Source: a virus
Taxonomy: Duplodnaviria > Caudoviricetes
IMG/VR virus record: IMGVR_UViG_3300025191_000001
Span: 30,039-94,038 of that record
Length of the DNA stretch: 64,000 nt
Reading direction: 5' to 3' (one strand)
The first letter of the stretch is position 1. Every line of letters starts with the position of its first letter. Below are positions 17,752-48,911 of the stretch, one piece after another. Under the pieces are notes generated by a model that searched no databases, was not told where the DNA came from, and saw only the letters and a program-made list of their open reading frames with translations. Position numbers and translations under genes: made by a program.

Positions 17752-17780
17752 ACTATATACAGACATTAAGATGATGTCAA
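17752..17780 (-). promoter_or_regulatory. sigma70-type promoter for leftward operon
   Basis: TTGACA-N17-TATAGT. Confidence 0.7.
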
Positions 17781-18031: not shown

Positions 18032-18052
18032 ATATACAGAGGATAAAATCTA

Positions 18053-18313: not shown

Positions 18314-18740
18314 ACAAGTAGTAAATTCATATATGTGGGTATACCTGTCCATATATGTCTTATCGTGGTTAGACAACGTGAGCCACTAGCACTAGGGAAG
18401 GTAAGGTCACTACCATGTAGTCATCGTATTACATGGTACACTTTACGGGGTTAGGTGCGATAGTCTGTCAGTTTGTATTAGCTGATGAAGATTAACCCCT
18501 GTTCAACCGATGATACTTAGGTTGTTCGTAACAAGGCTCTTATACAAATAAGAGATGGAAACTTCAAAAACTCTTGAACTCAAGAAGATAATCACTAAGG
18601 TGTTTCTTTTTAGATTCTGGTTTTAAAGATAAAACTTTCAACGCCCTGTCCCCGTAAAACACTGGCAAGTGTTTCCTATTTAGTTAGGTTATGGGGTAGG
18701 GTAGTTGCGTCTTTAAAACTTTGAATCTAAGAAGATAATC
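18314..18740 (+). ncRNA. putative large structured ncRNA or origin primer RNA, copy A
   Basis: No long ORF; series of stems covarying with the paralog at 46359-46779; conserved loops. Confidence 0.7.
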
Positions 18741-18830
18741 TATAAAGATACAATCTTTTAAAGAGACAATCTTTAAAGAGTACCTTTAACAACTACGTTG
18801 TTAGAATACAATCTTTATAAGAGAACAATC
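18720..18830. repeat. iteron-like block (ACAATCTTT x3) and palindrome TAACAAC-TAC-GTTGTTA (18787-18803)
   Basis: 18720-18765 is 45/46 identical to 46759-46804. Confidence 0.8.
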
Positions 18831-18942
18831 TACTAATTACTAGACTGTGAGAAATAAATAGTAATTAATAGTAAATACCTCTTGACTCTGTACTTTAATC
18901 TATCTATACTTACCTCACTTATTTAGGACGAGGTACAGAATT

Positions 18943-19092
18943 ATGAATGAACAAGTATTATTAGATGATGGTTGGTATTGGGTAATAAACAATGATCAAG
19001 GTTACTTGTGGTTAATTAAAGAGAGTGATATAGACTTTAGTAAGCACGTACATCAGTCGGATTGCTTAGACTTTAGAAACAAAACTAGATAA
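18943..19092 (+). CDS. 49-aa hypothetical protein (not in ORF track)
   Basis: GAGGT RBS, promoter TTGACT-N17-TATACT at 18882; MNEQVLLDDGWYWV... Confidence 0.6.
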   Translation: MNEQVLLDDGWYWVINNDQGYLWLIKESDIDFSKHVHQSDCLDFRNKTR

Positions 19093-19102
19093 GGAGTTTG
19101 TT

Positions 19103-19810
19103 ATGAAATATATGGGAAGTAAGAATCGAATAGCTAAAGAAATCCTACCTATTATATTGGATAATAGAAAACCTGACCAGTGGTATGTTGAGCCGTTTGT
19201 TGGTGGAGCTAATATGATTGATAAGGTAGGCGGTAAGCGTATTGCGAATGACCTAAATCAGTATGTAGTTACTATGTTATCTAGATTGGCAGAGGGGTGG
19301 ATTCCAGAGTTAATAACTAAGACAGGTTATCAAGACATTAAAAATAACCATGACGTATACCCAAAAGAGGTAGTAGGATGGGTAGGGATTAATTGTTCTT
19401 ACTCTGGTAAATGGTTTGGAGGGTATGCAGGTGAGGTTCAAACAAAACAAGGCAAGAGGGATTACCAAAAAGAGGCATTAAATAATGTGCTTAAACAAGC
19501 AGAATCTCTCAAAGGAATAACTTTCCTATCTGATGACTATTATAACTTAATTTTACCAAAAGCTAGTCTTATTTACTGTGATCCCCCTTACGCTAATACA
19601 ACAGGATATAAAGATAAATTTGACTATGAAAAGTTCTGGCAATGGTGCAGAGATAAACGCCAAGAAGGGCATGAAGTATTTATCAGTGAATACAATGCTC
19701 CAGATGATTTTACTTGTGTGTGGGAGAAACAAGTAAAGAGTTCTCTATCTGCTAATGGTAAATCTGGTGGAAATAAGCAGTCTATAGAAAAACTTTTTAC
19801 ATTAGTGTAA
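19103..19810 (+). CDS. DNA adenine methyltransferase (D12 class)
   Basis: YMGSK, YVEPFVGG, YCDPPY, FISEY. Confidence 0.9.
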   Translation: MKYMGSKNRIAKEILPIILDNRKPDQWYVEPFVGGANMIDKVGGKRIANDLNQYVVTMLSRLAEGWIPELITKTGYQDIKNNHDVYPKEVVGWVGINCSYSGKWFGGYAGEVQTKQGKRDYQKEALNNVLKQAESLKGITFLSDDYYNLILPKASLIYCDPPYANTTGYKDKFDYEKFWQWCRDKRQEGHEVFISEYNAPDDFTCVWEKQVKSSLSANGKSGGNKQSIEKLFTLV

Positions 19811-19877
19811 AATACTCCTTGACACACAATCACACTACACATAAACTAAGACAACATTAACAAAGAGGAGAAACATT

Positions 19878-20651
19878 ATGGAAAACGGTAAATATAGAGT
19901 GAAAGATGATTGTAAGACTTCTTCTGACGTAGAATTACAGATTGAAGTGGTAGACGGTGTTGCTACTTGTACAAAAGTAGAATATCTCTTGCATTGGGAG
20001 TTAGGCGAACAGATAGACACAGAATCCCTTAGTCCTGGACCTTGGGAACGTATCTCTAATGAGGAAATTCCCACATTTAAGAAAGGGGATAGGGTTAGGA
20101 AGAAAGATGGGACAAACTTTAGTAATAAGGAACTTGTAGCGACTGTAGATAGGGTTGAACCTATAGTTTGGCTGAAAGAAACAGCTACAAAGATTGACCC
20201 CCAATCTTTAGAACTAGTGCAGATTTCCTCTGAAGAACCTATTGATGAGTATCCTTTCAAAGAGGGTGATAAGGTTAAGAAAAAAGATGGGTATGCTTTT
20301 AGTAATGGACAATACGTTGTTACTGTAGATAGTAGCACGTATCTTGATGGTATGGCAGCAGTATGGATTAAAGAAACAAGTACTTATATTCACTCTGATC
20401 ATTTAGAGTTATGTATCTCTACTCCTACCCCACACAAATATGCTGATGTAATAAAAGCTTGGGCAGATGGGTATGAGGTGCAGCATCATAATAGTATAAA
20501 CGACGTGTGGTATAACAGTAATTTTCCCACCTTCGACCCAAACTTAAACTGGCGTATCAAACCAGATAACCCTAACCAAGATAGAATCCTAGAGATAGAG
20601 AGTACTATTACTGAATTACAAAATGAATTAGAAGAGTTAAAGACCTCTTAG
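19878..20651 (+). CDS. hypothetical protein with two SH3-like internal repeats
   Basis: FKxGDxVxKKDG..FSN...TVD...VWxKET twice; promoter TTGACA-N17-TAAACT at 19819. Confidence 0.75.
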   Translation: MENGKYRVKDDCKTSSDVELQIEVVDGVATCTKVEYLLHWELGEQIDTESLSPGPWERISNEEIPTFKKGDRVRKKDGTNFSNKELVATVDRVEPIVWLKETATKIDPQSLELVQISSEEPIDEYPFKEGDKVKKKDGYAFSNGQYVVTVDSSTYLDGMAAVWIKETSTYIHSDHLELCISTPTPHKYADVIKAWADGYEVQHHNSINDVWYNSNFPTFDPNLNWRIKPDNPNQDRILEIESTITELQNELEELKTS

Positions 20652-20656
20652 AAGTT

Positions 20657-20692
20657 ACACCCTTGCCTGAGATAGTGGTAAGGGTGTTTTTT
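20657..20692 (+). terminator. intrinsic terminator
   Basis: ACACCCTTGCC/GGTAAGGGTGT stem plus T tract. Confidence 0.8.
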
Positions 20693-20774
20693 ATTATCTA
20701 ATTTAAAATAGTTGTTGACATAGCTAGAGTAGTGGACTATTATTATTAAACCAATAAAAGAGAGGAATAAAATT

Positions 20775-20999
20775 ATGCAAAACATGTATAGAGTATCGGA
20801 TAGGTTACGTAGAAGAGAAGACACCATAAACTCATCGACTATCGTATCTAATGAATTTGAACAGTGTGGATGTTTATATTACTTCAGTAAGCTAGAAAAT
20901 GCGTGTAAAGCTGCAATAGAGTTTGACAATATGGTAGTGCCTATAGTTTACTGTAAAGACACTAGAAAGAGTGATGACTGGTATGAGGGGAAATTATGA
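20775..20999 (+). CDS. hypothetical protein
   Basis: GAGGA RBS, TTGACA-N17-TATTAT promoter upstream. Confidence 0.65.
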   Translation: MQNMYRVSDRLRRREDTINSSTIVSNEFEQCGCLYYFSKLENACKAAIEFDNMVVPIVYCKDTRKSDDWYEGKL

Positions 21000-21307
21000 A
21001 ATGTGAAGAATTAGTAAGTGTATTGAAATCCGCAGGTGTGGAAGTTCTTAATGAAGATGAATTTGGACGACTTGACGAAGACCTAAACCTCGTTAGGGAT
21101 TTGAGATTCTGTGTAGATGACTCAGAGTATTCGATAGTTTGGTTTAATAACATGATGACCCTCCATACATGGAACTCTACACAACAAACTATGTTCACTA
21201 GAATAGAGCATTCTGGTACATGGCCTAATAATTTCAAGCGTAACCTTCAAATGTATTACAAAGATGATTGTATTTGTATGATAGGACTAGAGAGGTATTC
21301 AGAATGA
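20996..21307 (+). CDS. hypothetical protein
   Basis: ATGA coupling. Confidence 0.65.
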   Translation: MKCEELVSVLKSAGVEVLNEDEFGRLDEDLNLVRDLRFCVDDSEYSIVWFNNMMTLHTWNSTQQTMFTRIEHSGTWPNNFKRNLQMYYKDDCICMIGLERYSE

Positions 21308-21612
21308 GTGAACAACTAGATTTATTTTCTTCTTATGAATGTGATCCTAGAGGTGCTACTGGTATGTATATCTGGTACAGTAATTGCCCTTGGGGAAAAC
21401 CCGACCTGTACTGCGATATTGTAAGTATTAAAGGTCAATACATAGTATTCAGTGTCATTAATGGAACATGGGAAGGTAGGTTGGACTTAGCAAATAAAAC
21501 TATGAGAATTTTCCACCCTTGGTATGAGGATAGTGTACACCTTTATCATAAATACGAATTTATTTACTATAAACCTAAAAAAGTTCTTGACACAGATAAC
21601 ATTCCTTCCTAG
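21304..21612 (+). CDS. hypothetical protein
   Basis: Start reassigned to ATGA overlap. Confidence 0.6.
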   Translation: MSEQLDLFSSYECDPRGATGMYIWYSNCPWGKPDLYCDIVSIKGQYIVFSVINGTWEGRLDLANKTMRIFHPWYEDSVHLYHKYEFIYYKPKKVLDTDNIPS

Positions 21613-21703
21613 AATACACATATTCAATAATCAATCACATTGAACAATGTTACAATTATTAATCACGAATATATTTATGAATAATCACACAGGAGAGACA
21701 ATT

Positions 21704-22312
21704 ATGAAAATTAACAGACTAGATTATGTACGTACAGAGGCTTTTAGTTTATGGGAGTTGACTTTGTTAGAAGAACTAATACGTAGTCAAGGTTATAAAT
21801 TAACAGATGAAGTGAATAGTTATTATGTTGGGAACTGGCTTGAATATGGAGTAGATGAGTCGGGTCATGCTGTTTTTTGGAATACTCAATTCTTAGAAAA
21901 GTGGGAGGGTAATGACATCACAGAGCAATTCCGTGATTATTTAGATAAGAGAGGAGCAGACGTTGAAAAGGAAGAATCTTCTAATAGTAAGTCCTTTACA
22001 AAGGATGATTTAAAAGATGGAATGGTTGTTAATTTTAGAAGAGGTGACAGTGGATTGATATTTAATAAGATGGTTTACTCCACAAGTAAGGAAGACTTTG
22101 CAAATCTTTCTACAAAAAGATGTATCATCGGCTTAGAACGTCTAAAAGAAGACCTCTCTCACAAAGATTTACCTTATTATGAAATCATCAAAGTATCATA
22201 CATGGACGAAGTTCTGTGGGAACGTATAGAAGAAACCCCTGAACAAAAGCGTATCAAAGAACTAGAGAAGATTATCTCTGAAGCTCAGAAAGCATTGGAG
22301 GGTCTACAATGA
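21704..22312 (+). CDS. hypothetical protein
   Basis: AGGAG RBS; FTKDDLKDGMVV motif. Confidence 0.7.
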   Translation: MKINRLDYVRTEAFSLWELTLLEELIRSQGYKLTDEVNSYYVGNWLEYGVDESGHAVFWNTQFLEKWEGNDITEQFRDYLDKRGADVEKEESSNSKSFTKDDLKDGMVVNFRRGDSGLIFNKMVYSTSKEDFANLSTKRCIIGLERLKEDLSHKDLPYYEIIKVSYMDEVLWERIEETPEQKRIKELEKIISEAQKALEGLQ

Positions 22313-22515
22313 GAGAGGTGAAACTCCCTTTTGAAGCCTGTGACGCTATTGTTATTGCCTGTTTAAAGGATGACTATGAGGATGTTAAAGCCTCTAAGGA
22401 GTATTACTCTATAGGATTAGCCAATGCTATACGATGCCTACTTAGGTACTACATGGTGGACAGTGAATACGAAGCTTGGACTACTAGTGTAGGTATAGAG
22501 GTAGATGAGGGCTAA
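22309..22515 (+). CDS. hypothetical protein
   Basis: ATGA coupling, GGAGG RBS. Confidence 0.65.
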   Translation: MREVKLPFEACDAIVIACLKDDYEDVKASKEYYSIGLANAIRCLLRYYMVDSEYEAWTTSVGIEVDEG

Positions 22516-22636
22516 CTTCTGGAGAGGGTATAGAAAGGGGTGGTACACAGGGTTCATTCTTGTGCTTATATCCTCTCTAATCCTCTACACAATTGTTATC
22601 ATCTATTTGACAAACTCACGAGGATTGTTATTCTAA
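22505..22636 (+). CDS. 43-aa single-TM membrane peptide (not in ORF track)
   Basis: MRANFWRGYRKGWYTGFILVLISSLILYTIVIIYLTNSRGLLF; GAGGT RBS. Confidence 0.6.
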   Translation: MRANFWRGYRKGWYTGFILVLISSLILYTIVIIYLTNSRGLLF

Positions 22637-22651
22637 AATTAGAATTCCTAT

Positions 22652-22748
22652 TAGAGCCTCTCAGACACGTTCTGAGGGGTTTTCTTGTATATAGTGGTAT
22701 GATTGTATACCTTAGAATTAAGTCCTCTTAGAATGGCTTACAGGAGCT
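22652..22748. repeat. dispersed intergenic element, copy E4
   Basis: TGAGGGGTTTT...GGTATGATTGTATACC...AAGTCCTCTTAGAATGGCTTACAG. Confidence 0.7.
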
Positions 22749-22841
22749 TTAAATTAATTATAAAATAATTGAAAATAATGTTTGACAGGGGGTTATTCTT
22801 TTGCAATACTTACCTTATCTAAACAGAGGAGAGAGTGGATA

Positions 22842-23033
22842 ATGAATATTGCAGAAACAATTGTACACAAAGCTAACGGAGACACAAGCTCTGTCATGGA
22901 ATTGTCTAATAAACATGCTGTTGATAGAGAACAAAACTTTGAGAAAGAGAAAACTTATTATTTCTTTGTTGACAACAGTGGTATTGTTGTCCATAATGAC
23001 CTTGTTGAAACATTTCCAGGAGAGTACTTATGA
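22842..23033 (+). CDS. hypothetical protein
   Basis: GAGGAG RBS, TTGACA promoter at 22782. Confidence 0.6.
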   Translation: MNIAETIVHKANGDTSSVMELSNKHAVDREQNFEKEKTYYFFVDNSGIVVHNDLVETFPGEYL

Positions 23034-23308
23034 TTGATATTACACGTATGTCAAATACAGAATTTAAACAGTTCACTAAAGGAAAGTTTTTCTCCTGCAA
23101 GTTTATTAAGAAATCAGGTGAACTTCGTGAATACAAAGGGGCTAGAGTAGAAGTTACTAAAGACAGTAAATTTACGATGCATAATAATATAGAGCATAAG
23201 CAGAATTTAGTTAGTGTGTATGTTCCTAATGAGAAACGTCCTAGGGCTACTCTTAATTTAGAAACTGTTAAAGAACTGACTTTCCAAGGGAAAACTTATA
23301 AATATTAA
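23030..23308 (+). CDS. WYL_2/Sm-like SH3 beta-barrel protein
   Basis: FSCKFIKKSGELREY motif. Confidence 0.55.
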   Translation: MIDITRMSNTEFKQFTKGKFFSCKFIKKSGELREYKGARVEVTKDSKFTMHNNIEHKQNLVSVYVPNEKRPRATLNLETVKELTFQGKTYKY

Positions 23309-23375
23309 GTGTTTACACAGGGAGGTGTGTTAAGGTAGTATTTGTTTTAGAATGTTAATGAGGAGAAGAGGAAGA

Positions 23376-23996
23376 ATGAGTGATTTAGATAGGTTATTTG
23401 AAAATGCGCCAGAGGGTGCGGTTGACTTGCGTGAACATAAACAAGCAGGGCATCTAAGATGGTTTGATAAAGAAGGTAAGGCTTGGTGTGGAGAAAATTG
23501 GTTTGTTTCTGAGTTTAAGAAATGGAAAACTATAGCTACACTACCACAGCCAGAACGCAAAACGGTTGAGGATGCGGTTGAGTACATCGAAGGCTACTGC
23601 GATGATGTATGGACATGTAGTCTTGACGCTTTATGTTACGTGGATGACGTTTGGTTTTATGACAAAGCTGGCATAAACAAGAATCAAGTATGCACCCGTG
23701 AAGAGTTCGAAGCTTGTGTTGCTGCTAAGGCTAAGAGAGAGCCTGAGTGGACTCATAGAACCAAACATAGCAAATTGTGCAAAATTGTTTTAGAGGAGCC
23801 TGACACTGACGGTTACATTGTTGTTTTAACAGAGGAGGGTGAATACATTAAACATCATACAGCACTCAAACCCATCAAGCCTACAATCACGAAGGCTGAG
23901 CATGAGTTTTTATGTAGGTTCTCTGCTGATGTAAGTGACATTCGTATAGTTAACGCTGTAGAGTCGTATCTAGCTGAGCATAAGGTAGTAGAGTAA
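23376..23996 (+). CDS. hypothetical protein
   Basis: FENAPEGA, VCTREEFEACV motifs, RBS. Confidence 0.7.
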   Translation: MSDLDRLFENAPEGAVDLREHKQAGHLRWFDKEGKAWCGENWFVSEFKKWKTIATLPQPERKTVEDAVEYIEGYCDDVWTCSLDALCYVDDVWFYDKAGINKNQVCTREEFEACVAAKAKREPEWTHRTKHSKLCKIVLEEPDTDGYIVVLTEEGEYIKHHTALKPIKPTITKAEHEFLCRFSADVSDIRIVNAVESYLAEHKVVE

Positions 23997-24134
23997 TCAC
24001 CTCCACAGACACATTGACACAGTTTTCTATATTGTGTATACTGACAATCTCTGGCTTAGGGCTTATTCTTATAGGATTAGAACTGGCTAGGATTGTCATT
24101 CTAATTATATCTACATTATTAAAGAGAAAACATT

Positions 24135-24341
24135 ATGAGGATAAGTAAGTCACAACATAGAGGATTATATTATTTCTTTGGGAGTGAAACCTCTTGTACA
24201 TTTGATAGGTTTAAGGTTAACACATACTCAGGGCAACTGTCTGTGGATTTGTATAGAGACAATGTTTATCTGATGTCTGTCAACTTTGAACATTCAAAAG
24301 AGTTTTGTAAGCAATGGAGACTGATGAGTATAAAGGACTGA
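24135..24341 (+). CDS. hypothetical protein
   Basis: ORF after TTGACA-N17-TATACT promoter at 24014. Confidence 0.55.
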   Translation: MRISKSQHRGLYYFFGSETSCTFDRFKVNTYSGQLSVDLYRDNVYLMSVNFEHSKEFCKQWRLMSIKD

Positions 24342-24375
24342 ATCTTTTAGGAACAACCTCTATATTAACACTCTC

Positions 24376-24460
24376 TGAGAGCCATTTTAAGAGGTTGTAA
24401 TTTTAACTAAGGTGATTGTATAGGGTAGAGTAATATCTCTTTATACAGAGCCATACAGGA
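24376..24460. repeat. dispersed intergenic element, copy E5
   Basis: Near-colinear with reverse complement of 589-670. Confidence 0.75.
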
Positions 24461-24476
24461 ACGATTAGGAGAGGTA

Positions 24477-24917
24477 ATGAACTTCCCAAAGAGAGAATAC
24501 GTAAGTGAACCAGAAATAACGAAAGTTTACACTATAAATGTACACATTGAACCTGAGATTATGTGGCATAAAGAGTTCACCTATATGGATAACGAGGCAC
24601 TGGCAACCTTTGATGGTGACAAAATCTACAGGAATTTAGAAAATAAAGTGGAAGTTGCTAGAGCTAAACAATTCGCAGAAGTTGTGGATGGAACATTAGA
24701 CAGCGTTTACATAAGCAAACAACTTATTATAGTAGAGCCAAAACTAGAAAGGATTCTTTCTGAGGATTATCGTAATAAGATAAAAGAACTAGAGGAAAAG
24801 CTCACTATAAAAGAGAACCTTTTAAAGGATAGAGTAACTACTATAGATTTATACAATAATCTACCGTGGTGGAAGAAACTTTTCACTTTTACTATTTACA
24901 ATGATGAGAATATATAA
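24477..24917 (+). CDS. hypothetical protein
   Basis: Coiled coil plus PWWKKLF C-terminal motif. Confidence 0.7.
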   Translation: MNFPKREYVSEPEITKVYTINVHIEPEIMWHKEFTYMDNEALATFDGDKIYRNLENKVEVARAKQFAEVVDGTLDSVYISKQLIIVEPKLERILSEDYRNKIKELEEKLTIKENLLKDRVTTIDLYNNLPWWKKLFTFTIYNDENI

Positions 24918-25168
24918 AACGATTAATACTAACATTAGGACTAGCGCTATTTCTCACTGGATGTGTAGAGGAAAAAGTAGTTTATTTGAATGAGAAAGGG
25001 GAACGGATGGAGGCTAGAGCTATATCCGATTGGAGTAATGAAGTAGGTGAAGTTTGTATTAAGAGGGTTGTCTATTATACGTATTTCTACGGAAACCGAG
25101 CAGGTATATCTCCTAAGATTGTTCCTAGGGGCAACCAATTCAATAAACCCTTTATAGAAAAATGCTAG
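24914..25168 (+). CDS. putative lipoprotein, apparent ATA start
   Basis: In-frame (M)KRLILTLGLALFLTG-C lipobox upstream of the annotated TTG at 24986. Confidence 0.6.
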   Translation: MKRLILTLGLALFLTGCVEEKVVYLNEKGERMEARAISDWSNEVGEVCIKRVVYYTYFYGNRAGISPKIVPRGNQFNKPFIEKC

Positions 25169-25204
25169 ATACAATTCCAGTTGAAAATTTGACCCGTTTA
25201 ATAG

Positions 25205-25240
25205 TCCCATTAGCTTAATTGCTAGTGGGATTTTTCTTTT
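25205..25240 (+). terminator. intrinsic terminator
   Basis: TCCCATTAGC/GCTAGTGGGA stem plus T tract. Confidence 0.8.
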
Positions 25241-25486
25241 TAGGGATCGACACTAAAGTCACTCTAGCCTAGAGTAAAAGATGGCTAGGATTTTGACACA
25301 AAGGGGATTTTCTCTGGACTAGAGACGAGGCTGATTATGCTAGACGCTTTTTTCGCTAGAAAGCTAATTAATTTTCATAAGTATAAAAATATATTATGCG
25401 ATTCTTTTATAAGGTATACCATACATTTATGGGATTTATATGAAGTATTTATTAGATAAATGACATGTTGGCATGAAAATTAATAA

Positions 25487-25503
25487 AGCAAATAGTATGC
25501 CAA
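25487..25503 (-). promoter_or_regulatory. sigma54 -24/-12 box
   Basis: TTGGCATACTATTTGCT (GG-N10-GC). Confidence 0.55.
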
Positions 25504-25647
25504 TTTATTTTCTATTGGGCAGGGATGGTTCAAGCAAAAGCTTTACATATAAATGTGGGTTATCTACCTTGCCCCGTTTTTCTCAATTTGTGAAGCTAGT
25601 ATAAATAAAGCGCTCACATATTGCAAGCGCTTTTTGAAATTATCTTA

Positions 25648-25902
25648 TTATTTAATTAGTTTCCCTTTTACCTTGCTATAACCTTGCGCACCAACACTAT
25701 TGTAATATGTAAATTTTACAGTCTTTTGTAGTATATCTTTACCAGAAAATTTTAGGGCGTATTTTTCAGGAGATACAGGGTTACTTGTAAAATCTAGCAA
25801 TTGAATATTACAACGTGCCCCCTCGTCTATCATAAAATTAGTGTTTTCAATTAAAAATTTCAATGCATCTTTTTTTGTCATATCTTTAAAATTGTTATTC
25901 AT
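25648..25902 (-). CDS. pre-early hypothetical protein
   Basis: AGGTGG RBS; terminator AAAGCGCT/AGCGCTTT near 25608-25636. Confidence 0.6.
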   Translation of the reverse strand: MNNNFKDMTKKDALKFLIENTNFMIDEGARCNIQLLDFTSNPVSPEKYALKFSGKDILQKTVKFTYYNSVGAQGYSKVKGKLIK

Positions 25903-26082
25903 TTGTCCACCTTTTCATTAATTGGCATTATCGCCTTGAACGGTTGAAAGCTTACACTATTAGATAAGAATGTAAAGAACAAAAAGCAATAAACATAGAA
26001 GTTTTTAGAATAGTGAAAGTTTCACATTTATATTTATTTGTGTTTTAATAAAAATAATTATTTAGAGTTAAAAGGTGGAATA

Positions 26083-26316
26083 ATGTCTTTAGTGGAAAAG
26101 CAAATTTTTATTGCCTCTCATAGAGGTAAAGTGCAAATAGTTGACGTGTTTTTAAATAATACATTATACGATGAAACCTCACAAAAAACAGCTTGTGAGG
26201 TACATTACACACTCGTAGATGAGGTTGGTGTATTAGAGAAAAGTTTTGATAAAATAGAATTTTCTACTTATGTAGGATATTGGGATATAAATTTCATAAA
26301 AAAGTGTTTGACATAG
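26083..26316 (+). CDS. pre-early hypothetical protein
   Basis: AAGGTGG RBS. Confidence 0.6.
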   Translation: MSLVEKQIFIASHRGKVQIVDVFLNNTLYDETSQKTACEVHYTLVDEVGVLEKSFDKIEFSTYVGYWDINFIKKCLT

Positions 26317-26379
26317 TGAAAAATCTTATGTAGATTGTAATCCATGTAATGATGCATTAATAAATGAAGGTTTAAGGTT

Positions 26380-26739
26380 ATGAGCAATCGTATAGTGATT
26401 TATGCCCCGTCCAATTTAGGTTATAAAAAAATTACATCCCGTACAATAGAAGAGGGGACTGTCTTACCCAAAAATTACTTCTACACCGAGGAGGAAGCGG
26501 TTAACGAGTATGACAGACGTAAAAAAGAATGTGAGGAAGAAAGAAAACACTTTGAAAATTCTTTTTTATTCGAGGCAAAAGAAGCAGAAGAAAAAATAAA
26601 CCAAGTTTTAAAAAATACAGGTTTTGATTTAGACTTTTGTTATGATGGGGATAGCCAAGGCATACACTCAGAAAAACTATATATCAGTAAGACTATAGCG
26701 GGTAAGTATCATCATTATTTTGAATATGAATTAAAATAA
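26380..26739 (+). CDS. pre-early hypothetical protein
   Basis: AAGG RBS after promoter. Confidence 0.7.
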   Translation: MSNRIVIYAPSNLGYKKITSRTIEEGTVLPKNYFYTEEEAVNEYDRRKKECEEERKHFENSFLFEAKEAEEKINQVLKNTGFDLDFCYDGDSQGIHSEKLYISKTIAGKYHHYFEYELK

Positions 26740-26801
26740 AGTTTGACAAATAAAAACATGTAGTTTAGTGTTAGCACTCATTCAATAAATAAGGTTTACA
26801 A

Positions 26802-26888
26802 ATGGAACTCGAAAAACTTTTAAACATACTACTTTACATTGGTTTTGTGTGTGGTATGGTAACGACTCTTCACTTAGTTTTAGTTAAT
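26802..26888 (+). CDS. 28-aa membrane peptide (not in ORF track)
   Basis: MELEKLLNILLYIGFVCGMVTTLHLVFS; AAGGT RBS just after promoter. Confidence 0.5.
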
Positions 26889-26907
26889 TTATAAAAGGTA
26901 ACAAATT

Positions 26908-27210
26908 ATGGTACAAGGTTTAATTCTATTCTCTGATAGTTCACGCGGTATAACTATTCCACAATTTTTCGCTAAATCAGTACAGCGTAATTATGTTTAT
27001 GGCATTAATGAAGAGGATCTGGATTGGTTTTTATCTAATGACGTTGATCATATAGAATACTGGGATCGGTGGGATGAAATATTAAACAATTGTTACATAC
27101 AAGACCATGATAATAATACATGGTATTTATCCCAAGACGGCGACCTATGGTTATTTAATGAAGAAGCAATGACTGAAGAAGAAAAAGAAAACTTTTTTGG
27201 TCAATTTTAA
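26908..27210 (+). CDS. acidic pre-early protein
   Basis: RGITIPQFFA...EYWDRWDEIL...YLSQDGDLW. Confidence 0.7.
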   Translation: MVQGLILFSDSSRGITIPQFFAKSVQRNYVYGINEEDLDWFLSNDVDHIEYWDRWDEILNNCYIQDHDNNTWYLSQDGDLWLFNEEAMTEEEKENFFGQF

Positions 27211-27301
27211 TAAAAACCTATTGACAGGGTGAAAACTTTAGTGATAACATTTGCACTGTCATCTAGACAAACAAATTAATTTTTTAAAAGGTAAATAAAT
27301 T

Positions 27302-27706
27302 ATGCAAAACTTAACTTTTAGTGATTACTATACAGAATGCGAAAACACGGCTTCATTGATTGTTGAGCAAGCGATTGACGATCTTCAGCGTGAAAATGAG
27401 GAAGTAACAGAAGACGCGGTTGAGGAAAAAATACACGATTATATTCTACATGAGACGATAGATTCTCATGAATATGTCACCTATAATTATTATCATTTGC
27501 CGATCTTACAAATTAGTTCTAATGATGATTATATGATAGAAAATATGGGGTCAGATTGTTTAATGCATGAATTGAAAAATAATGGTCTAAGTGGTTTACA
27601 TATGGCTTTAACTTTCTGGACTTTTTATGCGGATGTTAGCGAGTATCTAGCGGATGAAATAAACAAACAACTGGAAAAGTTAAAAGAAGGAAACGAAAAT
27701 GTATAA
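27302..27706 (+). CDS. Ocr-like (T7 gp0.3) DNA-mimic anti-restriction protein
   Basis: Very acidic; IHDYILHETIDSHEYVTYNYY resembles Ocr LHDAIHMAADNAVPHYY; pre-early position. Confidence 0.55.
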   Translation: MQNLTFSDYYTECENTASLIVEQAIDDLQRENEEVTEDAVEEKIHDYILHETIDSHEYVTYNYYHLPILQISSNDDYMIENMGSDCLMHELKNNGLSGLHMALTFWTFYADVSEYLADEINKQLEKLKEGNENV

Positions 27707-27818
27707 CTCGAGAATCTTTGATCGCAAAAGTGACTTTTTAAGCAAGTCAGAAAGAAAACATATTAAGCAGGAACGCAACAAAAGAAGAAGTAAGTTTAAC
27801 AGGTACGATCTAGCATAA
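27699..27818 (+). CDS. 39-aa basic peptide (not in ORF track)
   Basis: MYNSRIFDRKSDFLSKSERKHIKQERNKRRSKFNRYDLA; AAGGA RBS. Confidence 0.5.
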   Translation: MYNSRIFDRKSDFLSKSERKHIKQERNKRRSKFNRYDLA

Positions 27819-27934
27819 GGCTTTTAACACTAGGTTATTGACTTCTTTCAGCTTAATATCCTAGAATTAAGAGCCTTAGAAAGTCTCTTATTTTTGAAAT
27901 GAAGTTTTAACTATAGGCACTTGTTGCAGCTAGT

Positions 27935-28338
27935 GCCTATTATTAAAATTTTATAAATCGGCAATAATACCACAATTTGAAAACTATGGTGAAAATATGG
28001 TTACAATTCTATTTACTAATTGTGCAATAACAGTAAAGTCAGATATTAACGGCTGGACTTATTCCAGTTTAATTAACACACTTGATAAATTAATCGGCTT
28101 AACGGATCTTACTGATCCCGTAGTAATGGTAAAGTGTGGTAACATTAAAACATTAACACGTAAGTTAATGGAACAAGGTTTAATAGTTAACGAACGCCCT
28201 AGAAAATGCATTTATTAACGGGATTGTCAAAAGATTAAAATTCACAAACTGATTTAGATTACATTTAAGAAGTGTAGCCTATTATTAAAATTTTATTAAT
28301 TGGCAATAATGCCACAATTAAACTATGGTGAAAATATG
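27935..28338 (+). repeat. ~63-bp direct repeat of a gene leader (27935-27999; 28277-28338)
   Basis: GCCTATTATTAAAATTTTAT...GGCAATAAT.CCACAATT...AACTATGGTGAAAATATG in both. Confidence 0.85.
27997..28218 (+). CDS. pre-early hypothetical protein
   Basis: GGTGA RBS in repeat. Confidence 0.6.
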   Translation: MVTILFTNCAITVKSDINGWTYSSLINTLDKLIGLTDLTDPVVMVKCGNIKTLTRKLMEQGLIVNERPRKCIY

Positions 28339-28557
28339 TTTTTTATTGTTACACGTGAAAATGAGGACGGCTCTTTTGATAACGCAGGGATGATCAATCG
28401 CTTTTCTACTAGTTACTACGGAACTGTAAAAGGTCTAGTTAAACATATTATAAGTGATAACTGGAAAAAATCAGGCTTCAGACTTGAAGTGTTCCGTAAT
28501 CAATACGATACTAGGCTAGTAGATACATTGTACTTTAAAGCGGGGGAGGTATTATAA
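28336..28557 (+). CDS. pre-early hypothetical protein
   Basis: Start at the ATG of the repeat. Confidence 0.65.
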   Translation: MFFIVTRENEDGSFDNAGMINRFSTSYYGTVKGLVKHIISDNWKKSGFRLEVFRNQYDTRLVDTLYFKAGEVL

Positions 28558-28559
28558 CA

Positions 28560-28874
28560 ATGACTTCACTATCAGAACAAATCAGAGCTATAAAAACAGC
28601 TAATCAATTGAACAAATTTATCGACACGTTAAATCTAACAAAAGTCGAATGCTTAAAATATAATTCCCTATATTGGCTATATGTAGGGGATGACTTTGCC
28701 CAGCTTAGCGTTAACCATGGTCACGCATCAAAATTCGAGTACACCAGGCGTTACATTGATTCAGACGGTAAAATGGTAGTAATAGGCACTAGTGAGGCTT
28801 TATTTAATAAGCAAGGATTAAATAAGATTTTAGACTCACTCAATAAACGTATAGATGGATTTTACAATGCTTAA
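28560..28874 (+). CDS. pre-early hypothetical protein
   Basis: GGAGG RBS. Confidence 0.65.
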   Translation: MTSLSEQIRAIKTANQLNKFIDTLNLTKVECLKYNSLYWLYVGDDFAQLSVNHGHASKFEYTRRYIDSDGKMVVIGTSEALFNKQGLNKILDSLNKRIDGFYNA

Positions 28875-29151
28875 ACTAATCAAAAAAATCAAAGTTCAAA
28901 ACGAAATAGACACTATCAAAAAAGAGACTAGAAAAGATTGCAACAATCTACTGTTAAAAATGGCGTTGGTAGATACATTACATTACATGTATAGTGAGAA
29001 GGTTGGGGATAGCATGATTAAGAATAACTTTAAACAATTGTGTGCTTTTCTGGAGGTTGGCGTATATAAATTCATTCATCTAACTATAGAGGTATACTTG
29101 CATAATGACGGTACAAAAAGTGCAAGGATTATTAGTGAGGAAAAACTTTAA
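28867..29151 (+). CDS. pre-early hypothetical protein
   Basis: Overlapping start. Confidence 0.6.
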   Translation: MLKLIKKIKVQNEIDTIKKETRKDCNNLLLKMALVDTLHYMYSEKVGDSMIKNNFKQLCAFLEVGVYKFIHLTIEVYLHNDGTKSARIISEEKL

Positions 29152-29231
29152 AATTATTTTATTTTAGTTGTTGACAGTTAAAACGAGTGTCTGTATTGTG
29201 GGCACTCATTCAATAAATAAGGTTTTAAATT

Positions 29232-29426
29232 ATGAGTAATTCAATTGACGTATACGGTTCTTTCTCTGAATGTTGCGACATCTCAGTCGCCGGTACGTAT
29301 AAAAACGGTTGGGAATTTGAGGACATTGTAGACAATAGCTTCTTATCTAGAAAAGAAGCATTGAAGTCTATAAAAGACTGGGCAAAACGTGAACAAGTAG
29401 GACTTGACGAAATTTGTTTCTTTTAA
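29232..29426 (+). CDS. pre-early hypothetical protein
   Basis: Promoter plus AAGG RBS. Confidence 0.6.
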   Translation: MSNSIDVYGSFSECCDISVAGTYKNGWEFEDIVDNSFLSRKEALKSIKDWAKREQVGLDEICFF

Positions 29427-29502
29427 TAATTGTCTTTTCTAATAGAGTCCTGTATTATCGGGACTCTATCAAAAAGCTAATTATTTCTAACAAGGTGATA
29501 TC

Positions 29503-29907
29503 ATGAACAATTCACAACTATTCAAGCAAGCGCATTCAGTGGCACGTCAAACAGTTAAGCAGGTGGGCGATTATCAAATTGCTTTCACACTAGCATTGCG
29601 TGAATTGATAGCGGAAAATAAAAAGCCTAATTACAAAACTATTTCTATCAATGTTTTAGATTCTGAGTCTATCGCAACAAATAGCGCAATCCTGTCAGCT
29701 ATTATTTTAACAGTTTTATTGTTCACAACGTTGTCACTTTTCGCGCCAATTATCGGGGCATTAGTTGGTTGTATTACATGGCTTGCCACTATCTTATTGT
29801 TAGAGTTATCACAATGGGCAATGTTCAAAGCGTTATCATTTTTCTATGTTGATAACACTCAGTTTGAAGATGCAATTAACGATAGAAAAGTTTTCATTAT
29901 TGAATAG
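29503..29907 (+). CDS. pre-early membrane protein
   Basis: N-terminal LFKQAH..AR...DY...F..AL motif plus two TM helices. Confidence 0.65.
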   Translation: MNNSQLFKQAHSVARQTVKQVGDYQIAFTLALRELIAENKKPNYKTISINVLDSESIATNSAILSAIILTVLLFTTLSLFAPIIGALVGCITWLATILLLELSQWAMFKALSFFYVDNTQFEDAINDRKVFIIE

Positions 29908-29997
29908 CAATAAATTTAAAATAAAGTTTGACATAGTGGACGCTAATCAATAGTATTCGCTATGCACTCTTTATTAATTCTAATTTATAGGTGATTT

Positions 29998-30618
29998 ATG
30001 TCTAATCTTCACTCTTCTATCGTTAAAACTTGTTTCTCACTTGCTAAATTCAATAACGGTTTATTCAAGTCTGAAAAACAAGGTAAATTTTTGTCTTCAC
30101 TTGGTATTACTATTAGCTCTACTCAAAACCACAATCTAGGTTATGAATACAATTTTAAAACTTGTGGTACTACATACTGGACTATTTACCTTGACGCTAA
30201 AGGCGTGAATAAAATCACTAAGGAAAATTCAAAAGGCTTGACTGTGCACTTTGAAAGAGAAGAAGGCAGCGCATACCAGAATAAACAAGACATTAAAAAG
30301 GCGGCATTGGAAAAATACTTACCACTTTATAAGATGACAGAAGACAAGTGTCATAAAATATCAGACCGTGAATTTGAGTTAGAAGACAAGGCAGGAGAAA
30401 CGTATTACACTGACTACGTATTGAAGCTTATTCAATCTGAAGCGTTCAAATCGTTAGATGAACAAACTAGGATTGAGAAAGTGGAAGATCTAACCGATAG
30501 AATAAAACGCATTATGAATCTAGCGAAAAAGAATAGTATCCGTTTAAATTGTAAATATAAGTTTTATTCTCGTATATCTGAACAGTACAGAATGCTTACC
30601 TATCCTATTATTAAATAG
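29998..30618 (+). CDS. pre-early hypothetical protein
   Basis: NNGLFKSEKQ..FL motif; AGGTG RBS. Confidence 0.7.
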   Translation: MSNLHSSIVKTCFSLAKFNNGLFKSEKQGKFLSSLGITISSTQNHNLGYEYNFKTCGTTYWTIYLDAKGVNKITKENSKGLTVHFEREEGSAYQNKQDIKKAALEKYLPLYKMTEDKCHKISDREFELEDKAGETYYTDYVLKLIQSEAFKSLDEQTRIEKVEDLTDRIKRIMNLAKKNSIRLNCKYKFYSRISEQYRMLTYPIIK

Positions 30619-30647
30619 CCATTTAGAAGCCTTGTAACACTCTAAAA

Positions 30648-30674
30648 TAAAGCACCTAATAGAGGTGCTTTTTT
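30648..30674 (+). terminator. intrinsic terminator ending the pre-early block
   Basis: AAAGCACCT/AGGTGCTTT stem plus T tract. Confidence 0.85.
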
Positions 30675-30869
30675 ATTGCTTGCAATAAATGAGGACATCT
30701 TACAAGGATTAAGACAACCGTTATAGCGGCATACAAGCACCGCTACGGCCTTTAAAACTTACACCTAACACAATGGCATACCTTAACGTTTTAAACGTTA
30801 TCACGGGCTTTACAGGAACTGTAATGGCTATATCTGTGTTAGGAGTGTTAACCTTTAAAGATTGTATCT

Positions 30870-31091
30870 TAATAACTACGTTATTAGAGTATCTCTTATT
30901 AATTACATTAATAGATTAGAACGTTAACAATTAATTGTTAATTTGTACCTTTATAGTTTTGTAACCTTGTTAACCCTAGTGATACTTTGAAGCATTCTTG
31001 TGTTAGCTTGCTAACCAATTTGATTCCCTCCCTTGCAAGTACCTTGCCACTTTGTTCCTTTATAGATTGCCCCCTAATAACGTAGTTATTA
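30870..31091. repeat. two palindromes TAATAAC-(TAC/GTA)-GTTATTA (30870-30886; 31075-31091)
   Basis: Same palindrome as at 18787 and 46826 with a compensatory C:G to T:A change. Confidence 0.75.
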
Positions 31092-31333
31092 AAATTAATC
31101 CTTTATTATGTATTAAACTAGAAATCTTCCATCACAGGGTACTAAAAAGGTATCATTTTAACGTAGTGAAGAGTTCTCACTTATACCAATACACTTGTTT
31201 AAGTTGTACCTTAATAAGCTTACAATGCTATAGAGAGCCTCTGAGAGGGGATATCTTTAGATACTACTCTTGGCATACTATATGCTTAAAGAAATATATG
31301 GTATAGAATATGCTATAGCAATAACCTTGCCAG
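31034..31333. promoter_or_regulatory. three sigma54 -24/-12 boxes (31034-31050 minus; 31270-31286 plus; 31317-31333 minus)
   Basis: GTGGCAAGGTACTTGCA; TTGGCATACTATATGCT; CTGGCAAGGTTATTGCT. Confidence 0.55.
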
Positions 31334-31415
31334 AGTGTACAATTTTGAAAGATTATTCTTTTATATGTATATAAGGATTTTTTTCACTTAGAAGGTACTA
31401 AAAAGGTATCATTTT
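31138..31415 (+). repeat. 22-bp exact direct repeat GGTACTAAAAAGGTATCATTTT (31138-31159; 31394-31415)
   Basis: Direct reading. Confidence 0.85.
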
Positions 31416-31891
31416 CATAAAGGAATACTTATGCAAAAATATTGCATATTCATTCAAGGATACTATGTTGGGTAGGTATGCATGTTAAGCGGGTAAGTAT
31501 TCAATAGGGAAAAGCTATCAATATTTGAGAATTACAAATGTAATCTATACGGGAAAAAGTCCTACCTTAAACACCCAATCACATGAATCCTCATGAACCT
31601 ACATATTTTAGGATATTCTTTTTGAAGTTAATCTAATAAAAGGTGATATTTTGTATATAAAAATGTTGGAAAAATACTAATTTTTTAAGAGTACATATGT
31701 ATAAGGTATATTTCTGTAAAGTAGATATATTTCAATAGGTTACACTAAATAAATAGATATTTTAGGAGAGGTAGATATTTTGTAAGATATTGATATTTCT
31801 GAGGTTATAGATTTTGTAGGTTAATGTATGTTTTTGAGAGGTTACTACTTGTTGTACGTAATACTAAGTATTGTAAAGGGTAGAACCCATC

Positions 31892-31996
31892 GTAGGACGC
31901 TCTGTACGGCACGTACAAGGGTTTTATCTGTAAAGTTACCCTGTTGTATAGCCTTGTTATATAATCTCCACTAAATCGCTTACAGAGCTTCTGAGG
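31892..31996. repeat. dispersed intergenic element, copy E6 (diverged)
   Basis: AAGGGTTTT...TTGTATAGCCTT...AATCGCTTACAGAG. Confidence 0.5.
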
Positions 31997-32090
31997 ATTA
32001 AGTAGGGTTTCTCGTCAGAACTACTTGACATGGGACAAAACTGTATGCTACTATAGAGGTAATGTCTTAATAAATTAACAGGAGTTTTAT

Positions 32091-32693
32091 ATGAAGAATT
32101 ATGTTGTGTACTTTGCTTTCTTAGGTGGTGAGTTGGTCTATATTGGGAAAGGTTTTAAGGGAAGGGAATTTCACTTGACTACTGGAACGTCTCATGTCTA
32201 CGAAGCTAATAAGGCGCATTTTGAAGGGAAGACTTTAGAAGTGAAAAGTATTAGCTTGTCTAAGCAAGAGGAATCTGATTTAGAAATAGAAAAGACTCTT
32301 ATACAGGCTTTTAATCCTCCTTGGAACAAACAACACTCATCCGAGGGAAAATACTTCCAGTACAAGAGTGTGTCTCAGAAAGAGGATGTTAATACCTTGC
32401 TGGTTGAGGAGATACGAAGTTTAATAGAGTATAATAAATCTATAGAGATTCAGTTGATTAGTGAAATTGATTGTAGAAAATTATATGAGAGTAAGTTTGA
32501 GAATGTGAATAAATCGGTGCATGATTTGGAAGTAATGAAGAGGGGTATAGGCTCTATGAGTAAGAAAGAATATATGGAAGTTCTTAGGTGTAGTGGTTAT
32601 ACTCAAGTAGAGTGTATGGATATTTTAGGTATATCACTGAGTACTGCTAAGAGATGGGATAAGAAGATTAAACTAAAAAACCCACTAAATTGA
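32091..32693 (+). CDS. GIY-YIG-like endonuclease with C-terminal HTH
   Basis: VYFAFLGGELVYIGKG...R...E..LI...NPPWN; own TTGACA promoter at 32025. Confidence 0.7.
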   Translation: MKNYVVYFAFLGGELVYIGKGFKGREFHLTTGTSHVYEANKAHFEGKTLEVKSISLSKQEESDLEIEKTLIQAFNPPWNKQHSSEGKYFQYKSVSQKEDVNTLLVEEIRSLIEYNKSIEIQLISEIDCRKLYESKFENVNKSVHDLEVMKRGIGSMSKKEYMEVLRCSGYTQVECMDILGISLSTAKRWDKKIKLKNPLN

Positions 32694-46194: not shown

Positions 46195-46229
46195 TATATT
46201 TCTCCTTTAAGTTCCCTACCTAAGAACAT

Positions 46230-46257
46230 ATTCTACCACAGGTTTGTTCCCTGTCAA
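46230..46257 (-). promoter_or_regulatory. sigma70 promoter for leftward operon
   Basis: TTGACA-N16-TAGAAT with TG extension. Confidence 0.7.
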
Positions 46258-46324
46258 CTGTTTATTTTCAATTATTTTATTTAAGGGGTTTAGGTATTAT
46301 TTTAAGTTTATTTGAAAATAGTAG

Positions 46325-46352
46325 TTGCAAAGTTTGAAAACTCGTGTATAAT
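46325..46352 (+). promoter_or_regulatory. promoter upstream of structured element B
   Basis: TTGCAA-N16-TATAAT. Confidence 0.65.
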
Positions 46353-46358
46353 TAATCT

Positions 46359-46779
46359 TATACGGTAAAGAAATGTTTTTGTGTAAAGTCTTTCGACATT
46401 TCGCCTTAACGGGTCGTTCCACTAGAAAGCGTCAGTGGATAGCAATAGGACAGAAGATGGTCACTGTAACCTAATCATCGTATTAGGTCAATACACCTCT
46501 TAGGGAGTAGTTGCGATAGCCTGTAACGTGCTTAGACGTTATGAAAAGTACTCCTTTCCAGATAACTTAGCAGAGTCTGGCTAACAATCCCATGCCCTAA
46601 TGTGTATGGTGGAAACCTCAAAATCTTGAACTCAAGAAGATAATCTCTTTATTAGATTCAAATTTTATGATGGCAGAACTAGTCCCTAGAGTTCACGTAA
46701 AACCGATTATAAGGTTTCCTTTTTAAGGTTGTGTTCTTTAGGGCAGTTTTGCCTAAAATTTGAATCTAAGAAGATAATC
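46359..46779 (+). ncRNA. putative large structured ncRNA or origin primer RNA, copy B
   Basis: Paralog of 18314-18740 with covarying stems and identical loops. Confidence 0.7.
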
Positions 46780-46845
46780 TATAAAGATGCAATCTTTTAA
46801 AGAGTAACCTTTAAAAGATATACTCTAACAACTACGTTGTTAAGA
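46759..46845. repeat. iteron-like block and palindrome TAACAAC-TAC-GTTGTTA (46826-46842)
   Basis: 46759-46804 is 45/46 identical to 18720-18765. Confidence 0.8.
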
Positions 46846-47042
46846 ATCCTTCTAACTACTTGTCTGTCAAATATCTCTCTTACAAACGTGACAGTATAGG
46901 TTTGTATAAGGTCAGACTACCAACACACTAGTATTACGTATACCAATACAGTACTATATCAATATAATTCAATTAATTTACCATTATAATGAAATAGTTC
47001 TTGACTTGGTACAAAATCGATGATACTATATACTTGTAGACA

Positions 47043-47579: not shown

Positions 47580-47724
47580 TGATTTTATTAGATTAGGATT
47601 GTGTTTCTAAACTAAATTCCTAATTAGAACAATGGTTTAATAAAATTGATTAAAAAAGTGCTGTACAATCGAAAAAGTTGTGCTACAATATATACAGACA
47701 CTAAAGAAAACTTAGTAAATAAAT

Positions 47725-48007: not shown

Positions 48008-48090
48008 CTTTAAAAATAAACTTAACTATTAGATGGGTTTATATCTTACTTGTCCCTGTTGCGAACTGACAGTTAAGTTTATTTTTAAAG
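48008..48090. repeat. 20-bp perfect inverted repeat overlapping the RBS of the HNH gene
   Basis: CTTTAAAAATAAACTTAACT / AGTTAAGTTTATTTTTAAAG. Confidence 0.85.
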
Positions 48091-48101
48091 GAATTTTTAT
48101 T

Positions 48102-48911
48102 TTGACTATATCTAAAGAACTATTTAACTATGTTTTAAATAATACTAATGTAAAAGAAGATACTGGTTGTTGGGAATACCAAGGTAATATCAGTAAGACA
48201 GGTTATGGATTTGCTTCGTTGAACAGAGAAAAATCTTCAGCACATAGAGCGGTTTACCAGTTTCTGTACAGGAAAGTTAGTTTACCTTATATGCTTTGTC
48301 ATATATGTAATAACCCAAAGTGCTGTAATCCTGACCACTTGTACGAAGGCACTGCAAGAGAAAATGAAAGAGACTCTATACTTGCGGGTACTAGTCTATT
48401 TTACAACATAGACCAACGAGGTGAGAACAACATCTCTTCTAAGTTGACTCAAGATATAGTAATAAAAGCAAGAAAATTGGCGGAGGAAGGCCACACCCAT
48501 AATTACATATCTCAACGGCTTGGGGTAATTAGGCGAACATTGTCTAGGGCTATTACAGGACAATCTTGGTCTAATTTGAATGACATCCAACACCCTGTTA
48601 CTTATAACAGCACTAAAGGTAGTTCCCCTTACAAAGGCGTTAAAATCAACAAGGCTAGAGGTAAAGAAGGGGAACTTAGATACGTAGCAAGAATAGGATA
48701 TAAAGGTATTAGGTTTTATATCGGTGGATTTTTGAGTGAAGAAGAAGCTGCACAGCGGTATGACTATTGTTACCAGTGTATCAACGAAACCAACACCTGC
48801 CCGAACGGTACAACAGAGGACGTACTCGCTACTATACAAAAAGATACCAAACTAAATAGACGTTTAAAAGACTTCGTTATAAAGGCGGATAACAATGCCA
48901 ACAAAGAATAA
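48102..48911 (+). CDS. HNH homing endonuclease with HTH and AP2 domains
   Basis: GCWEYQG, AHRAVY, CHICNNPKCCNPDHLYEGT..EN, SSPYKGV...EEEAA..YD; TTG start after AAGGA. Confidence 0.88.
   Translation: MTISKELFNYVLNNTNVKEDTGCWEYQGNISKTGYGFASLNREKSSAHRAVYQFLYRKVSLPYMLCHICNNPKCCNPDHLYEGTARENERDSILAGTSLFYNIDQRGENNISSKLTQDIVIKARKLAEEGHTHNYISQRLGVIRRTLSRAITGQSWSNLNDIQHPVTYNSTKGSSPYKGVKINKARGKEGELRYVARIGYKGIRFYIGGFLSEEEAAQRYDYCYQCINETNTCPNGTTEDVLATIQKDTKLNRRLKDFVIKADNNANKE

Follow-up and report, generated by a model that had tools for sequence, protein, structure and literature searches.

A fixed-length rod in a probable 480-nt structured RNA behind the early promoters of Alteromonas phages

Gene context of the two copies

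The stretch of DNA analyzed here, which we refer to as the window, is 64,000 nt long and corresponds to positions 30039-94038 of a virus record of 94,038 bp, for which the nearest named relative was Alteromonas phage vB_AmeM_PT11-V22 (hereafter V22), of the genus Myoalterovirus. The element under study was present in 2 copies in the window, which we refer to as copy A and copy B. Copy B was located in a gap at 46195-47042 that contains no ORF and separates a leftward gene block from a rightward one, and it was 92.7% identical to V22 over an unannotated gap at 86231-86911 of MN877442. Copy A was located in a similar gap, and gene orientation as well as GC skew switched at both places. Each copy was placed directly 3' of an early promoter, and the 2 copies headed the 2 rightward gene blocks. 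The promoter of copy B was of the sigma70 type (Table 1), and both its -35 and -10 hexamers were conserved in the aligned relatives. None of the small ORFs inside the element was conserved between A and B, and tRNA or tmRNA genes were not found in the window.

The next gene downstream of each copy had a promoter of its own, at 18882-18910 for A and at 47001-47029 for B. No intrinsic terminator was found after the element in either A or B, and read-through into the downstream genes is therefore possible. In V22, an entire HNH gene was located between the element and the next gene, which indicates that a fixed spacing to the downstream start codon is not needed.

Other features were noted in the vicinity of the 2 loci. 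Genes for HNH endonucleases were located directly 3' of the RNA gene at locus A in the related phage genome G002 (L327:6549-7298, minus strand) and at locus B in V22 (MN877442 86974-87768), while the HNH gene in the window (48033-48911) was located 1.2 kb past copy B; these neighbors suggest that the conserved RNA gene provides a homing neighborhood. The rightward block after copy A (18900-30600) contained about 17 strong sigma70-like promoters on the plus strand (TTGACA, a 17-nt spacer and a -10 hexamer), approximately one per small gene, and such a promoter-dense block is typical of an early host-takeover region. Moreover, a 54-nt promoter-like module with the sequence GTTGTGnTAyAATATATACAGA preceded early genes near both elements (17994-18047, 47652-47705, and 17717-17770). 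A segment of 1.5 kb at 30618-32091, after a strong intrinsic terminator at 30649-30671, was almost without ORFs.

Table 1. Positions in the window of copy B, its promoter and its domains, and of the paralogous copy A
Feature	Position	Strand	Description
Sigma70-type promoter, copy B	46325-46352	+	TTGCAA, 16 nt, TATAAT; predicted start near 46360; consensus scan
5' domain (model R3)	46366-46504	+	Four helices: 46370-77/46395-402, 46418-23/46434-39, 46454-61/46495-501, 46469-75/46482-88
Middle domain (model R2)	46495-46619	+	46503-09/46549-55 enclosing 46525-29/46536-40; then 46558-62/46576-80 and 46590-94/46605-09
Small hairpin and motif copy 1	46624-46645	+	UCUUG-AACU-CAAGA, followed by the motif at 46628-46645
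Rod, copy B (model R1)	46652-46769	+	118 nt; helices of 16, 9, and 7 bp in a stack, with a junction-closing helix
Tip three-way junction	46695-46734	+	Closing helix ACGUAA/UUGUGU; hairpin 1 AACC-GAUUAUAA-GGUU; hairpin 2 CCUU-UUU-AAGG
Motif copy 2	46762-46779	+	GAAYYYAAGAAGAUAAUC; bases 1-8 serve as 3' strand of the rod basal helix
AU-rich tail	46780-46845	+	Hairpin AAAGAU-GCA-AUCUUU at 46783-97; 15-16-nt repeats ATCTTTTAAAGAG; terminal hairpin UAACAAC-UAC-GUUGUUA at 46826-42
Copy A, paralog of the whole element	about 18320-18803	+	Rod at 18610-18730

Architecture and distribution of the element

A sequence-only reading had described a 118-nt rod with a branched tip of 2 hairpins under the range 46359-46845. 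This range corresponds to the whole of copy B, whereas the rod proper occupies the shorter interval given in Table 1. The rod is one domain of an ORF-free structured element of about 480 nt. The helices of this element, at least 13 in total, fall in the 5' and middle domains, in a small hairpin, in the rod and its two-hairpin tip, and in the AU-rich tail. The last helix listed for the 5' domain (46469-75/46482-88) enclosed a conserved loop, CAUCGU. Conserved single-stranded words were located between the helices, namely UAGCA, UGCGAUAGCCUGU, AUGAAAAG, UAACAA, and UGGAAAC, the last four of which belong to the middle domain.

All of the stems that had been named for the rod of copy B were present, and every pair was verified by script: stem 1, TTAGATTCAAATTTTA/TAAAATTTGAATCTAA (16 bp); stem 2, GGCAGAACT/AGTTTTGCC (9 bp, including one G.T); stem 3, CCCTAGA/TTTAGGG (7 bp, including one G.T); and the tip hairpins AACC/GGTT and CCTT/AAGG. 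The junction-closing helix, ACGUAA/UUGUGU in copy B, was missing from that list and was added here. Only small bulges were seen in the interior of the rod, below the branched tip. The minimum-energy RNA fold of the plus strand of copy B was the rod with its branched tip (-47.5 kcal/mol, z = -8.3), and the plus-strand RNA fold of the copy A rod had the same shape (-49.5 kcal/mol, z = -7.4), with none of 200 shuffled sequences being as stable in either case. The suggestion that copy A has the same shape with a different stem sequence was true of A and also of 6 further copies from related phages, and all 8 copies folded independently to the same rod and two-hairpin tip.

The junction sequences had been described as kept between A and B, and the words (G/A)TAAAAC, GTTTCC, and AGGTT indeed showed no variation across the copies. 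The tip loops were not conserved between the A and B types, the loops of B being GAUUAUAA and UUU and those of A being GGCA and AUUUAGU. The loop GGCA, which had been taken for a GNRA loop, has a C as its third base and is not of this kind. In 5 of the 6 copies of the B and G001 types, tip loop 1 contained the self-complementary hexamer UUAUAA.

The rod was flanked by 2 copies of the motif GAAYYYAAGAAGAUAAUC (GAAYYYAAGAAGATAATC), which occurred exactly 4 times in the window, 2 per element, compared with 0.05 occurrences expected by chance. The motif was near-invariant in all 8 copies of the element, the sole difference being the last base in both motifs of the A copy in G002. A search of the opposite strand of the 94-kb genome for antisense targets of the AAGAAGAUAAUC motif gave no exact match and one match with a single mismatch.

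Homologs were sought by DNA-pattern and neighbor-protein scans of a viral collection and by scans of metagenomes and bacterial genomes, and the resulting loci were screened with nhmmer and the rod model R1. Eight distinct copies from about five lineages were obtained: copies A and B in the window, a single copy each in V22 and G001, an A-type and a B-type copy in G002, a copy in the fragment L061, and copies in 2 other fragments that were the same as (L058) or near-identical to (L016) the copy in G001. No homologs were found beyond the 4 phage genomes and these 3 fragments in the viral collection, the metagenomes, or the bacterial genomes. Genomes usually contained 2 copies, with V22 and G001 holding only one, and the single copy in G001 was assigned to locus B by synteny. 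The sequence identities were 82% to 85% between B copies, 77% to 81% between A copies, and 66% to 73% between A and B copies. The orthologs are thus more similar to each other than to the paralogs, and the duplication is older than the divergence of these phages.

At locus A, the genomes of V22 and G001 contained a different ORF-free element of about 400 nt behind the same promoter, here called A' (L080:6838-7245, which equals MN877442 56838-57245, and G001:C1:84011-84412). The 2 sequences of A' were 82% identical, with 10 compensatory pairs between them. A relationship of A' to A and B was rejected, as it was unmatched by all 3 covariance models; it may represent a second, unrelated structured RNA.

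Covariation, strand preference, and the tail

The stems were not alignable by sequence, and a rod alignment produced with MAFFT only displayed almost no covariation for this reason. Covariance-model alignments were therefore used. The rod model R1 was built from the four B-type copies only, and the models R2 and R3, for the middle and 5' domains, were also built from B-type copies only. Searches with R1 recovered the rods of the G001 type and the A type with E-values of 1e-16 to 1e-10, and searches with R2 recovered the A-type and G001-type copies with E-values of 3e-5 to 6e-13. R3 matched the A-type copies only, with E-values of 1e-11 to 1e-14, and left the G001-type copies, which have no counterpart of one inner hairpin, unmatched.

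In the rod alignment of the 8 copies (A7), 91% of the cells were paired and 20 of the 46 pairs showed double compensatory changes; none of 500 shuffles reached any of the 5 measures, and sliding the partner by 1 to 3 columns reduced the pairing to 31% to 56%. The corresponding values were 97.7% of cells paired and 19 of 22 pairs double-changed for the middle domain (alignment A10), and 98.2% of cells paired and 16 of 28 pairs double-changed for the 5' domain (alignment A11), with 0 of 500 shuffles reaching the observed scores for either domain and the slid controls falling far below them in all 3 tests. Since the alignments were fitted with covariance models of the proposed structure, these counts lean towards that structure, and they represent only about five independent lineages.

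The variation along the rod was unevenly distributed. The middle helices were almost wholly variable, the 8 bp at the base and the helices of the junction were nearly fixed, and helices 4 to 6, which form the tip junction, were 98% to 100% paired. The length of the rod was 115 to 121 nt in all 8 copies, with a 3' arm of 39 to 40 nt. Of the earlier proposal of an element that is recognized by its shape, the part that concerns the shape was borne out, with strong covariation, a fixed arm length, and invariance confined to the base and the tip junction.

Two additional pairings were considered. A pseudoknot between AUCGU and GCGAU was not supported, as the change in V22 was uncompensated, the change in G002 was one-sided and improved the pairing, and G001 had no loop hairpin, yet contained UGCGAAU. 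For the candidate pairing GGAAAC/GUUUCC, both sides were nearly invariant, giving no variation to compare.

Direct repeats on both sides of a 118-nt inverted repeat might also be taken to signify a miniature inverted-repeat mobile element in a noncoding region, with the 18-nt motifs as its target duplication. We give this interpretation next to no credence. Only the 2 loci were found in the 94-kb genome, with no further copies, there was no empty site in any relative, and the rod was present in every homolog. Furthermore, the arms covary, their length has been conserved since before the duplication into A and B, and the second repeat itself belongs to the basal helix. With neither dispersed copies nor empty sites, a MITE-type element is effectively refuted.

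The plus strand yielded the more stable fold in 8 of 8 rods, with 2 to 6 G.U pairs per rod compared with 0 to 2 on the minus strand. The plus strand was likewise more stable for the whole elements, as exemplified by copy A with -153 versus -120.5 kcal/mol. Among the 703 pair cells from all modeled pairs, there were 51 G.U versus 9 A.C combinations, a count that is somewhat biased by the models having been built on the plus strand. The sequence-only reading had allowed for an action either as RNA or as a single-stranded DNA hairpin on a displaced strand. The RNA alternative is strongly favored by the promoter, the greater stability of the plus strand, the excess of G.U pairs, and the covariation across 480 nt, and a single-stranded DNA hairpin on the plus strand is less favored. 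We consider it very probable that the element folds as a structured-RNA domain of the plus strand.

A purely DNA-level element, that is, a cruciform or a single-strand DNA hairpin bound by a phage protein with the RNA having no role, appears highly improbable. It is in line with such an element that a DNA fold of the inverted repeat was also obtained (z = -8.0 with the plus strand and -5.9 with the minus strand) and that the repeats in the tail resemble operator half-sites. However, the G.U excess and the greater stability of the plus strand in all 8 copies speak against it, a two-strand cruciform is disfavored because it would incur a penalty on the other strand, and helices that are not palindromic also covary across 480 nt behind a promoter.

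The AU-rich tail showed a different pattern of evolution. In a comparison of the tails in the window (46780-46845 and 18741-18830) and those in L008 and L063, the identity between A and B within a genome was 78% in both G000 and G002, whereas the identities between genomes were 57% for B and B and 51% for A and A, which is a trend opposite to that of the core and the rod. The 15-16-nt repeats of the tail contained the dyad TCTTTAAAGA. The terminal hairpin module of the tail recurred at 30849-30886 and 31054-31091, and in these copies within the segment at 30618-32091 there was a compensatory stem change (TAATAAC...GTTATTA) and, in one of them, an inverted loop. It was also noted that a gene for a Cro/C1-type helix-turn-helix protein (18053-18292 in the window) was located just upstream of the copy A promoter in G000 and V22, that G002 encoded a protein without detectable similarity at this site (L327 about 7650-7900, minus strand), and that G001 had none, in parallel with the 3 types of tail. 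The type of tail follows that of the helix-turn-helix gene located 5' of locus A. The tail may belong to the RNA, it may act at the DNA level as an array for protein binding, or gene conversion may have homogenized it. The boxA consensus was also compared with the tail, and a boxA/nut interpretation was rejected, as CU(C/U)UAACAA was found only in G000 and V22, with other sequences at this position in G001 and G002.

Possible roles and comparison with known RNAs

No part of the window matched Rfam 15 at the gathering thresholds, including the families GOLLD, ROOL, HEARO, OLE, raiA, 6S, pRNA, tmRNA, RNase P, and the group I and II introns, and with E-values of up to 10 the only matches in the region of copy B were to miRNA precursors, as generic hairpins that scored far below the threshold. 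Large RNAs with many conserved helices are rare, and where their functions have been solved they are usually ribozymes, the cores of ribonucleoproteins or, recently, RNA-only cages. Noncoding RNAs were previously sought in V22 with Rfam-based tools, and none was reported (PMC7289586).

The closest category is that of GOLLD and ROOL, which are phage- or prophage-borne noncoding RNAs of several hundred nucleotides with many helices and of unknown function that form RNA-only cages (PMC12286853). Like them, the element described here is a large phage-borne noncoding RNA with many covariation-supported helices, and the long arms of GOLLD and ROOL make contacts (PMC12286853). Unlike them, it is smaller, has no Rfam match and no tRNA gene in the window, and usually consists of 2 old paralogs behind early promoters. 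Large structured phage RNAs of unknown function are thus already known as a category, and what is new, rather than a mechanism, is the family and its architecture, a previously undescribed and unannotated family of structured phage RNAs of about 480 nt.

In the explanation that we consider best overall, and on balance probable, the rod is the spacer arm of a stand-alone early structured RNA. The sequence of the stem is free, its length is fixed, and neither the base nor the tip junction varies, which makes a spacer that presents a docking site the most likely role of the arm. Host RNA polymerase would transcribe the RNA of about 480 nt rightward from the sigma70-type early promoter, and the arm, with about 38 stacked bp, would most likely be a rigid spacer that keeps the conserved junction at a defined distance from the core of the RNA. 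The tip would then dock to a partner, which may be a protein or an RNA, in the latter case either a separate molecule or a different region of the element itself. Since the tip loops differ between the A and B types, recognition would rest on the junction and not on the loops. The RNA as a whole would be a stand-alone early transcript that acts on its partner during host takeover, with the tip as the presumed contact site. That the RNA is a stand-alone RNA acting in trans, rather than a cis leader or a primer, is favored by the separate promoters of the next genes, the approximately 17 promoters in the block after copy A, and the HNH insertion in V22, and we propose this more specific point tentatively, at slightly below even confidence.

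The RNA might also belong to a new class of large ornate phage RNAs without a dedicated protein, for example as a ribozyme or as an RNA complex that assembles by itself, which we consider unlikely. The rod of fixed length would in that case be a bridge that touches a neighboring molecule, the UUAUAA in loop 1 could form kissing contacts, and early in infection the 2 old paralogs could assemble into separate or mixed complexes.

The position of both copies immediately downstream of early promoters, where the rightward blocks begin, and the lack of a terminator downstream of either copy could alternatively point to a leader RNA that acts in cis, folding on the nascent transcript and modifying the polymerase or otherwise controlling read-through into the rightward blocks. 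The put RNA of phage HK022 acts in this manner, in cis on the zinc-binding domain of the RNA polymerase beta-prime subunit, and suppresses termination. It is about 70 nt long and consists of 2 stem-loops (PMC9378689). There are 2 copies, putL and putR, just past the early promoters of the phage, and they are a paralogous pair with a similar shape, differing sequences, and 2 adjacent stem-loops (PMC9378689), comparable to the 2 small adjacent hairpins at the tip of the rod. A processive mechanism would also tolerate the HNH insertion after the element in V22. On the other hand, the element of about 480 nt and at least 13 helices is about 7 times the size of put, and a put RNA was rejected on grounds of size and architecture. 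The put copies serve divergent operons, whereas both copies of the phage element point rightward and the leftward blocks that start in the same gaps are without such an element. Moreover, the downstream genes have their own promoters, the block after copy A being promoter-rich, and the boxA-like word CUUUAACAA is merely part of a covarying hairpin and is missing from G001 and G002. A cis-acting leader of this kind therefore has a minor share of the probability in our assessment.

A primer RNA for a replication origin is less probable still. Its transcript would remain hybridized within the AU-rich repeats of the tail and prime the leading strand, in the manner of ColE1 RNA II or of the T4 and T7 origins. 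The ColE1 RNA II pre-primer is a structured transcript of about 500 nt from a sigma70 promoter, and its fold matters. The order of the features at the phage loci, with a promoter, about 420 nt of folded RNA, and an AT-rich array of 15-16-nt units, would fit such a primer, as would the location of both copies at minima of the cumulative GC skew, the T7-kind replisome encoded by V22 (Pol I and a primase-helicase), and the covariation of the tail repeats within a genome, as seen for pairs of iterons and initiators. However, the GC skew is explained just as well by gene orientation, V22 and G001 have a single copy each and an unrelated element at their locus A, and neither an initiator gene nor an antisense regulator was found. 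In contrast to ColE1 RNA II, no antisense RNA I promoter or origin is defined here, the setting is that of a phage, and there are 2 copies; phage origins of such a type are not known to need an RNA with 13 helices.

Two other known RNAs were compared with the rod. The pRNA of phi29 is transcribed from an early promoter and has a long helix that leads to a three-way junction with 2 hairpins, and its secondary structure is conserved among relatives with little conservation of the sequence. The rod resembles it in its long helix ending in a two-hairpin three-way junction and in a structure that is kept while the sequence is free. It differs in that there is no Rfam match to pRNA, the present phage is a myovirus with a terminase, and the rod makes up only a single domain within a far larger RNA. 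A phi29-type pRNA was also rejected because there is no 4-nt complementarity between the 2 tip loops in either B or A, unlike the loops that form the ring. A 6S RNA was rejected as well, as the rod, with its small bulges and branched tip, has no large central bubble resembling an open promoter, and there is no Rfam match to 6S.

The element represents an unannotated class of RNA in lytic marine phages, a family confined to a small group of marine Alteromonas phages, and its role is directly testable because V22 and its Alteromonas host are in culture. With a stem of variable sequence, a fixed length, and a tip that does not vary, all clearly set apart, the rod is an obvious first target for mutation and pull-down experiments.
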